Positions 3,843 through 4,030 of a DNA stretch of 8,688 bases are shown here, piece by piece; positions within the stretch are counted from its first letter, which is position 1, and every line of letters starts with the position of its first letter. This DNA comes from Escherichia coli. Its GTDB lineage: Bacteria; Pseudomonadota; Gammaproteobacteria; Enterobacterales; Enterobacteriaceae. The stretch is from NCBI RefSeq assembly GCF_003334335.1, contig NZ_QOWQ01000068.1; one strand, 5' to 3'. A program made the translations under genes and the position numbers. Under the pieces are notes generated by a model. That model worked only from the letters and a program-made list of their open reading frames with translations. It was not told the origin of the DNA and searched no databases.

Positions 3843-3874
3843 TATGCCAATTGTTTACTAAAAATTATTAAAAA

Positions 3875-3894
3875 TGGGGCGTTGAGACGCCCCC
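3875..3894 (-). terminator. Probable intrinsic terminator for leftward (nmpC) transcription
   Basis: 8-bp GC-rich stem tggggcgt / acgcccca with loop tgag. On the minus strand the hairpin is followed by a U-rich tract (complement of aaaattattaaaaa at 3861-3874). On the plus strand it is followed by A-rich sequence, so it is not a plus-strand terminator. Confidence 0.5.
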
Positions 3895-3981
3895 AAAAAT
3901 AAAGGGTAATATATAACAGAAGGTTTATATAGTTAGAAGCAAGGTTGTGCTCCTAAAGGAAGTGGCTTGAGGGAGCCACTT

Positions 3982-4020
3982 ATATGTTGGGGAGGCAAAG
4001 CCTCCCGCAACATATCTTTT
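3982..4020 (+). terminator. Long imperfect stem-loop followed by CTTTT; possible quuD terminator or nmpC 3' stabilising hairpin
   Basis: atatgttggggaggc (3982-3996), loop aaa, gcctcccgcaacatat (4000-4015, one bulge), then ctttt (4016-4020). Lies 12-15 nt from the nmpC stop on the opposite strand, so the orientation is ambiguous. Confidence 0.35.
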
Positions 4021-4030
4021 AGTAATCAAA

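Follow-up and report, generated by a model that had tools for sequence, protein, structure and literature searches.

The window analysed here is a stretch of 8,688 nucleotides of Escherichia coli DNA. Its positions 3400-5400 are 100% identical to many E. coli chromosomes, which marks it as a lambdoid prophage of the DLP12 type; its nmpC is intact. In strain A14 (NZ_CP028760.1) the genes are ordered ybcN-ninE-ybcO-rusA-ylcG-quuD, an opposite-strand porin gene and essD-rrrD-rzpD-bor. Gene quuD (3459..3842, plus strand), annotated in a genome that is 100% identical over 3400-5400, encodes a late antiterminator of the Q type, in the Q21/Q933W family. QuuD matches Pfam PF06530 (E 3.9e-53) and the Q21 structures 6p18 and 6jnx (E 7.6e-7), and by these matches it is a distant relative of Q21, a protein with solved structures. 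It shares 78% identity with Q of 933W and 88% with Q of phage Lambda_ev087. On the opposite strand lies nmpC (4031..5113, minus strand), an intact lc-type phage porin gene; identical genomes label it 'porin OmpC', and its K-12 counterpart is interrupted by IS5. The nmpC DNA is about 88% identical to the lc region of phage PA-2. The first late gene is essD (5701..5916, plus strand), annotated as a holin gene in an identical genome. The order Q-porin-lysis was already known for DLP12 and PA-2 in the 1980s.

Between the convergent quuD and nmpC genes lies a gap of 188 bp (3843-4030). Alignment with K-12 showed 98% identity, with three substitutions and a T-run that is one T longer in K-12. The ipeX gene of MG1655 is listed on the reverse strand at 574365-574531 (167 nt; supplementary table, PMC8313858). 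These K-12 coordinates map through the alignment to window 3868..4033 on the minus strand, and therefore every hairpin described below is part of one leftward RNA. The mapped segment starts at the stop codon of nmpC and extends to eight bases past a terminator stem, at the end of the terminator U-tract. It thus comprises the nmpC 3' UTR: it lies directly 3' of the nmpC stop, on the same strand, and carries a Rho-independent terminator at its end. Going by this alignment and arrangement, what lies between quuD and nmpC is ipeX, a small-RNA gene already described, and its hairpins are real but ordinary.

IpeX has been known since 2006. The IpeX RNA of DLP12 and PA-2 was reportedly described by Castillo-Keller, Vuong and Misra in that year (J Bacteriol 188:576), and the porin 3' UTR, supplied in trans, is said to lower OmpC. 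The window copy agrees with the DLP12/PA-2 gene in locus, position and strand, in its 98% identity to K-12 and closely in length (166 vs 167 nt), and the first 200 nt 3' of the PA-2 lc stop codon (J02580) are identical to K-12. It differs from the K-12 copy in its setting, as nmpC is split by IS5 there but intact in the window, so that the porin promoter can drive IpeX, as it does in PA-2.

Of 5426 complete E. coli genomes, 2510 contain the gap (90-100% identity), and an annotated porin gene adjoins it in nearly all of the 40 matches listed. It nevertheless looks empty, because ipeX is marked neither in the K-12 RefSeq record nor in Rfam; a gene present in nearly half of the complete E. coli genomes can thus pass for an empty gap, which is a lesson for annotation. 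A search of the gap against Rfam gave nothing at the gathering threshold, and an E-value threshold gave only chance-level hits. One of the Rfam matches, isrK, was rejected as meaningless at 11.8 bits. The supplement of an E. coli Term-seq study (PMC7815308) has no entry for ipeX, quuD, nmpC or essD.

The gap is highly structured. The plus strand folds at -67 kcal/mol (z -6.3) and the minus strand at -69.2 kcal/mol (z -9.2), and on either strand none of 200 shuffles was as good. The initial annotation had listed three stem-loops in the gap, all of which are present where it had placed them; they are not nested, as it had described them, but stand in tandem, side by side, and the solid hairpins number four rather than three. 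Hairpin A (3982..4015, minus strand; IpeX nt 19-52) has 15 bp with one bulge and folds at -22.2 kcal/mol (z -7.2) on the minus strand and at -22.3 kcal/mol on the plus strand. Its stem pairs 3982-3992 with 4005-4015 and encloses an inner 7-bp GC stem (3990-3996/4000-4006). Hairpin B (3960..3981, minus strand; nt 53-74) has a perfect 8-bp stem (3960-3967/3974-3981; -10.4 kcal/mol, z -4.4). Hairpin D (3933..3956, minus strand; nt 78-101; -8.9 kcal/mol, z -4.2) is the one that had been missed. The remaining solid hairpin is the terminator of nmpC/ipeX (3876..3893, minus strand), with a perfect 7-bp stem GGGGCGU/ACGCCCC (3876-3882/3887-3893), a CUCA loop and AUUUUUAA at 3875-3868; together with its tail it folds at -13.9 kcal/mol on the minus strand (z -3.8). 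A fifth hairpin, E (3910-3931), consists of AU pairs only and is very weak (-0.7 kcal/mol, minus strand).

The hairpins were also examined for covariation. The search for related loci gave just loci of 98-100% identity, and the sample comprised 19 distinct variants that are 92-100% alike. No two-sided change was found across these 19 variants, and 98.6% of the cells in the five helices are paired, the same as in the shuffle control; covariation is therefore silent either way. Since it is uninformative, the structures rest on thermodynamics and not on comparative proof. Variation among the variants sits mostly in loops. The terminator loop has five forms (CUCA, UUGC, UUUC, CUUC and UUCC) on a nearly invariant stem, and one pair of hairpin D is G-U or A-U depending on the variant. 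The divergent allele L087 carries a C-to-G change that moves the bulge of hairpin A by one position while keeping its 15 pairs; it has also lost, without compensation, the two uppermost pairs of hairpin B.

The terminator scan made a single call in the gap, at 3876-3893 on the minus strand alone, followed by AUUUUUAAUAAUUUUU. Seven pairs, six of them GC, precede AUUUUUAAUA on the minus strand, as in an intrinsic terminator, and the plus strand continues after the hairpin with CAAAAAUAAA. This hairpin is a one-way terminator for nmpC/ipeX; the earlier proposal that it serves the leftward nmpC transcript is borne out by the scan call, the U-tract and the folding. Hairpin A had been noted to be followed by CTTTT on the opposite strand, and indeed CUUUUAG follows it on the plus strand. 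The corresponding sequence is CUUUUUCG in K-12 and CUUUGAG in the variant of strain Z1323HEC0355 (L089). As a plus-strand terminator, hairpin A would combine a stable stem with an AU-rich stem base, a C spacer and a U-run of three to five among the variants, and it was not called by the scan. It is at best a weak rightward terminator for read-through from quuD.

The gap had been interpreted as a set of convergent terminators. In its strict form this reading holds that 3876-3893 stops nmpC, that 3982-4015 stops quuD and that the RNA itself is functionless. The former hairpin is indeed a textbook nmpC terminator, the plus-strand stability of hairpin A and the U-run that follows it in the window and in K-12 fit the latter, and the sample holds no covariation that would speak for a structured functional RNA. 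However, the segment coincides with ipeX, an annotated and experimentally studied gene, and the sequence and the terminator scan gave no U-run on either strand for hairpins B and D, that is, for two of the four solid hairpins. Hairpin A, moreover, has an AU-rich stem base, is followed by a U-run that is down to three in L089, and received no call in the scan. We therefore regard a terminators-only gap as improbable: the nmpC terminator is real, and the gap itself is ipeX.

A milder proposal is compatible with the ipeX explanation. Hairpin A might in addition stop part of the rightward transcription from quuD, as a terminator or insulator, so that unmodified polymerase would be kept from antisense transcription of nmpC in lysogens. 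Its position directly before the 3' end of the convergent gene, its stability and the four to five U that follow it in most variants would suit such a role. With a C spacer, few U residues and a stem base rich in AU, it is predicted to be inefficient, however, and neither the non-conserved U-run nor the missing scan call favours it. Such a second role for hairpin A seems to us rather unlikely.

The ipeX reading of the gap agrees with what has been published on the RNA. According to a review, IpeX is a 167-nt RNA of DLP12 that is made from the porin promoter within the porin transcript and is then processed (PMC12197685). Three further papers state that IpeX represses ompC and ompF (PMC3333887; PMC7177473; PMC5069750), and another that phage PA-2 also carries it (PMC8065619). 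In the window, leftward transcription would accordingly start at the nmpC promoter, cross the porin gene and about 166 nt of 3' UTR, and stop at the terminator at 3876-3893. This UTR carries hairpins A, B and D in tandem, then a weakly structured AU-rich stretch and finally the terminator. Co-transcription, processing and porin repression are taken from these papers: the UTR would be processed into IpeX, which would lower the synthesis of OmpC and OmpF post-transcriptionally. In lysogens the phage porin would thereby replace the host porins.

How IpeX might reach ompC was examined by looking for complementarity. Full-length RNAduplex comparisons of IpeX with ompC and ompF were uninformative, as the positive control, MicF with ompF, failed too, and windowed duplex energies likewise did not discriminate; a crude longest-run test was used instead. 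This test pointed to a candidate seed at IpeX nt 109-123 (window 3911..3925, minus strand), AACCUUCUGUUAUAU, which is complementary to positions -21..-7 of the ompC mRNA (AUAUAACAGAGGGUU). The two form 15 consecutive pairs, 14 Watson-Crick and one G-U, that cover the Shine-Dalgarno sequence. A run of 15 pairs with ompC was reached by 4 of 500 dinucleotide shuffles; the run of 12 pairs between MicF and ompF was reached by 38 of 500. For ompF, the best IpeX run is 10 nt long, at the Shine-Dalgarno sequence; 241 of 500 shuffles do as well, as expected by chance. The longest-run test gave no such seed site in the nmpC leader.

The seed-ompC duplex has a calculated energy of -18.5 kcal/mol against an opening cost of 3.3 kcal/mol, with loop nucleotides that are unpaired at a probability of about 0.9. 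The candidate seed, made up of the loop of the negligible hairpin E and its 3' arm, is where IpeX is least structured; a U-rich stretch and the terminator follow closely on its 3' side. A seed ahead of a U-rich stretch and a terminator is the usual layout of enterobacterial small RNAs. In 5359 of 5426 genomes the ompC leader has an identity of 99% or more.

IpeX may thus act on ompC by ordinary seed pairing through nt 109-123 after all, a tentative proposal that we hold to be somewhat less probable than its negation. It is in tension with reviews that deny simple complementarity as the cause of the ompC effect (PMC12197685). We infer that the weakly structured nt 109-123 could serve as the seed on the ompC ribosome-binding site and that the stable 5' hairpins could mainly protect the RNA and mark the processing boundary. 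If seed pairing holds, these hairpins would be protective or processing elements, and the functional core of IpeX would lie between them and the terminator.

MicC and MicF are chromosomal small RNAs that block translation of ompC and ompF by pairing at the ribosome-binding site. IpeX has the same targets, ompC and ompF, and its candidate seed covers ompC -21..-7; we take the GUUAUAU of this seed to be shared with the 5' end of MicC. The ompF Shine-Dalgarno region, which is also covered by MicF, can pair with IpeX UAUUACCCUU, a run at chance level. Unlike MicC and MicF, with which it has no overall sequence homology, IpeX is the 3'-UTR product of a phage gene, and its pairing is a prediction.

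In the lambdoid late control unit Q-pR'-qut-tR', which includes the Q21/Q933W systems, the late promoter is expected next to Q. The initial annotation had proposed that here it was displaced to the far side of nmpC or lost. A promoter scan of the gap (3843-4030) gave no sigma-70-like promoter on either strand, and the late regulatory regions of phages that have a related Q (933W/Sp5 and ev087) show no homology to the gap. Window 5481-5563, in turn, is 77-78% identical to the 933W region annotated as putative pR' and tR'. The predicted pR' (5482..5509, plus strand) consists of TTTACG (5482-5487), a 16-bp spacer and TATGCT (5504-5509), homologous to TTTACG-16-TATCAT of 933W/Sp5, with a predicted start at about 5516. 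It is followed by a terminator hairpin (5540-5561; -12 kcal/mol, terminator scan) with a T-run (5540..5566, plus strand; +24..+50 from pR'). This is the only terminator-like site from pR' to essD, and it is conserved across loci. Positions 5482-5566 thus hold a promoter homologous to a mapped PR', and then a terminator before the first late gene.

The start of the Sp5 PR' transcript, StxS, was mapped by dRNA-seq and Term-seq 258 nt before its 3' end, with an RNase E cut at GU|AUU at +173 (Sy et al., PMC7547250). On the current Sakai record (L093) the published distances allow only one solution, with the start at 946, 7 nt past TATCAT, GUAUU at 1117-1121 and the terminator at 1176-1204. A location of PR' inside Q, which follows if the StxS coordinates are taken at face value, was rejected, as a fit of the three features just named shows the Sakai record to be offset between versions. 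The first hairpin after PR' (the equivalent of L093 969-995) carries the label putative tR' in the 933W record. As the Sp5 PR' RNA ends at the second terminator, this first hairpin (+24..+50) must be read through at least in part in Stx phages.

QuuD thus belongs to the Q21/Q933W family, and the pR' and the hairpin that follows it are homologous to those of 933W/Sp5. Two differences were noted. The 933W promoter and the end of Q overlap, whereas in the window about 1.66 kb with nmpC and ipeX lie between the two. In Sp5 the mapped PR' RNA runs for 258 nt to a second terminator, whereas the first hairpin of the window is the only one before essD. We propose that QuuD would act at pR' (5482-5509), about 1.65 kb downstream of its gene, and that polymerase would be carried past the 5540-5566 hairpin into essD-rrrD-rzpD. 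Deposited phage genomes (for example ev243, PhiR68_2, mEp332 and the 434B recombinant) also have the Q-porin-late-region order. As many genomes deposited as phages share this order, the late promoter is displaced and not lost; the first half of the earlier proposal is supported by the PR' homology at 5481-5563, and the second half is at odds with the conservation of the PR' block.

By eye, two -10-like hexamers can be seen in the gap, at 3907-3912 and 3928-3933 (TAATAT or TATAGT); about 60-100 nt further downstream come hairpin A and its U-run. A canonical pR'/qut/tR' could then be placed in the gap itself, with a plus-strand promoter near 3907-3933 and a short RNA that ends at hairpin 3982-4015. 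No promoter-like site there passed the scan, however, nor is there a usable -35 at 16-18 bp. The late-region homology sits at 5481-5563 and is absent from the gap, and it is the PR' block and not the gap that stays with Q across mosaic variants. A late promoter within the gap therefore appears extremely improbable, and we retain the pR' at 5482-5509.

The 1.66 kb between Q and the late promoter have the character of a module (3819..5480), with boundaries given by the Q and PR' homologies. The three Q genes (QuuD, 933W and ev087) align up to GAGATGGAT, at window position ~3818, and their tails are unrelated beyond this point; homology to 933W in the PR' region begins at ~5481. The module is absent from 933W and ev087, which have a related Q, and its boundaries at ~3819 and ~5481 fall at conserved phage sequence, as in a moron. 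Divergence is also concentrated between these boundaries. The divergent allele L087 is 97.2% identical to the window in quuD, 92.3% in the ipeX stretch, 89.8% in nmpC, 90.2% in the region upstream of nmpC and 100% in the PR' block. The block of PR' and hairpin is 96.5-100% conserved where the porin module has diverged to ~90%, and the PR' block is almost invariant among 80 viral contigs and several genomes. A mosaic breakpoint lies right after the T-run of the hairpin, where either the DLP12 lysis region or a 933W-like tRNA region follows. The PR' block is almost invariant across these mosaics, and thus Q and its promoter travel together with the porin/ipeX module lodged between them.

Phage morons, such as lambda bor and lom, are self-contained genes of benefit to the host that lie between phage genes with their own promoter and terminator. 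The porin/ipeX module resembles them in being an opposite-strand unit with its own terminator and with a divergence unlike that of its flanks (~90% vs 97-100%). It differs in carrying a regulatory RNA in its 3' UTR and in its placement between an antiterminator and its promoter. A module of a porin and a small RNA can therefore sit between an antiterminator and its own promoter. Taken together, we consider it very probable that the gap is the ipeX locus, the 3' UTR of nmpC, and part of a porin/ipeX module inserted between Q and pR'.

Several rearranged copies of the region were observed. In strain JB2 (L090 2501-2564) an IS5-like element replaces nmpC and most of ipeX, of which the terminator end remains. 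Strain Z1323HEC0355 (L089 2501-2685) has kept the porin gene and ipeX, and quuD is absent. In AR_0013 (L088) the quuD-ipeX-porin-pR' unit is joined to the 933W-like tRNA region and not to essD. In the viral contig IMGVR_UViG_2627853732_000001 (L040, minus strand near 2950) the pR' block is broken directly after TTTACGTACGTAAAAAATTGG by what we take to be the end of an IS1 element, and this copy has probably lost its late promoter. In Lambda_ev087 (L005 2938-3070) a promoter-like TTGCTG-17-TAATGT can be seen by eye directly after Q. It is followed by a terminator that resembles the Sp5 tR' and by an opposite-strand lipocalin gene. This Q is 88% identical to QuuD and has another promoter-like sequence after it, and thus closely related Q genes adjoin different downstream regions.

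Q21-type binding elements have been described as direct repeats. The direct repeat of TTATTTGTTG (two copies, 5392-5413) was considered as a Q-binding element and rejected, as it is missing from ev087 and lies outside the 933W PR' homology block. As such, the tandem repeat TTATTTGTTGG/TTATTTGTTGA at 5392-5413 is perfect, occurs once in the window, is beyond chance and lies between the nmpC promoter region and pR'. The -35 element of pR' lies within a perfect 14-bp palindrome, TTTACGTACGTAAA (5482-5495). Its 933W/Sp5 counterpart, TTTACGATCGTAAA, differs by an exchange of the two central bases and is likewise perfectly palindromic. The palindrome could be a protein-binding site, although the elements described for Q21-type proteins are direct repeats.

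The nmpC-essD fragment has been used as the regulatory region of the lysis operon, and that study cites control by a Q-type antiterminator and by RpoE (PMC7918800). On the window its forward primer maps to 5041-5060 and the core of its reverse primer, which is mismatched as printed, to 5805-5819. By eye, a sigma-E-like promoter can be seen at 5130-5156 on the plus strand (GAACTA, 16 nt, TCACT), with a start near 5162 that agrees with the '+1' implied by the '-121 to +650' fragment of the lysis operon (PMC7918800). Transcripts from this site would have to cross the 5540-5566 hairpin. The PA-2 record annotates CRP sites, one of them at L004 1730-1750 (about window 5516-5536), GAGTGGTTACTTCGTCACACAG. 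It lies about 400 bp from the lc start, in a stretch that is conserved in 933W, and coincides with the first ~20 transcribed bases of the predicted pR'.
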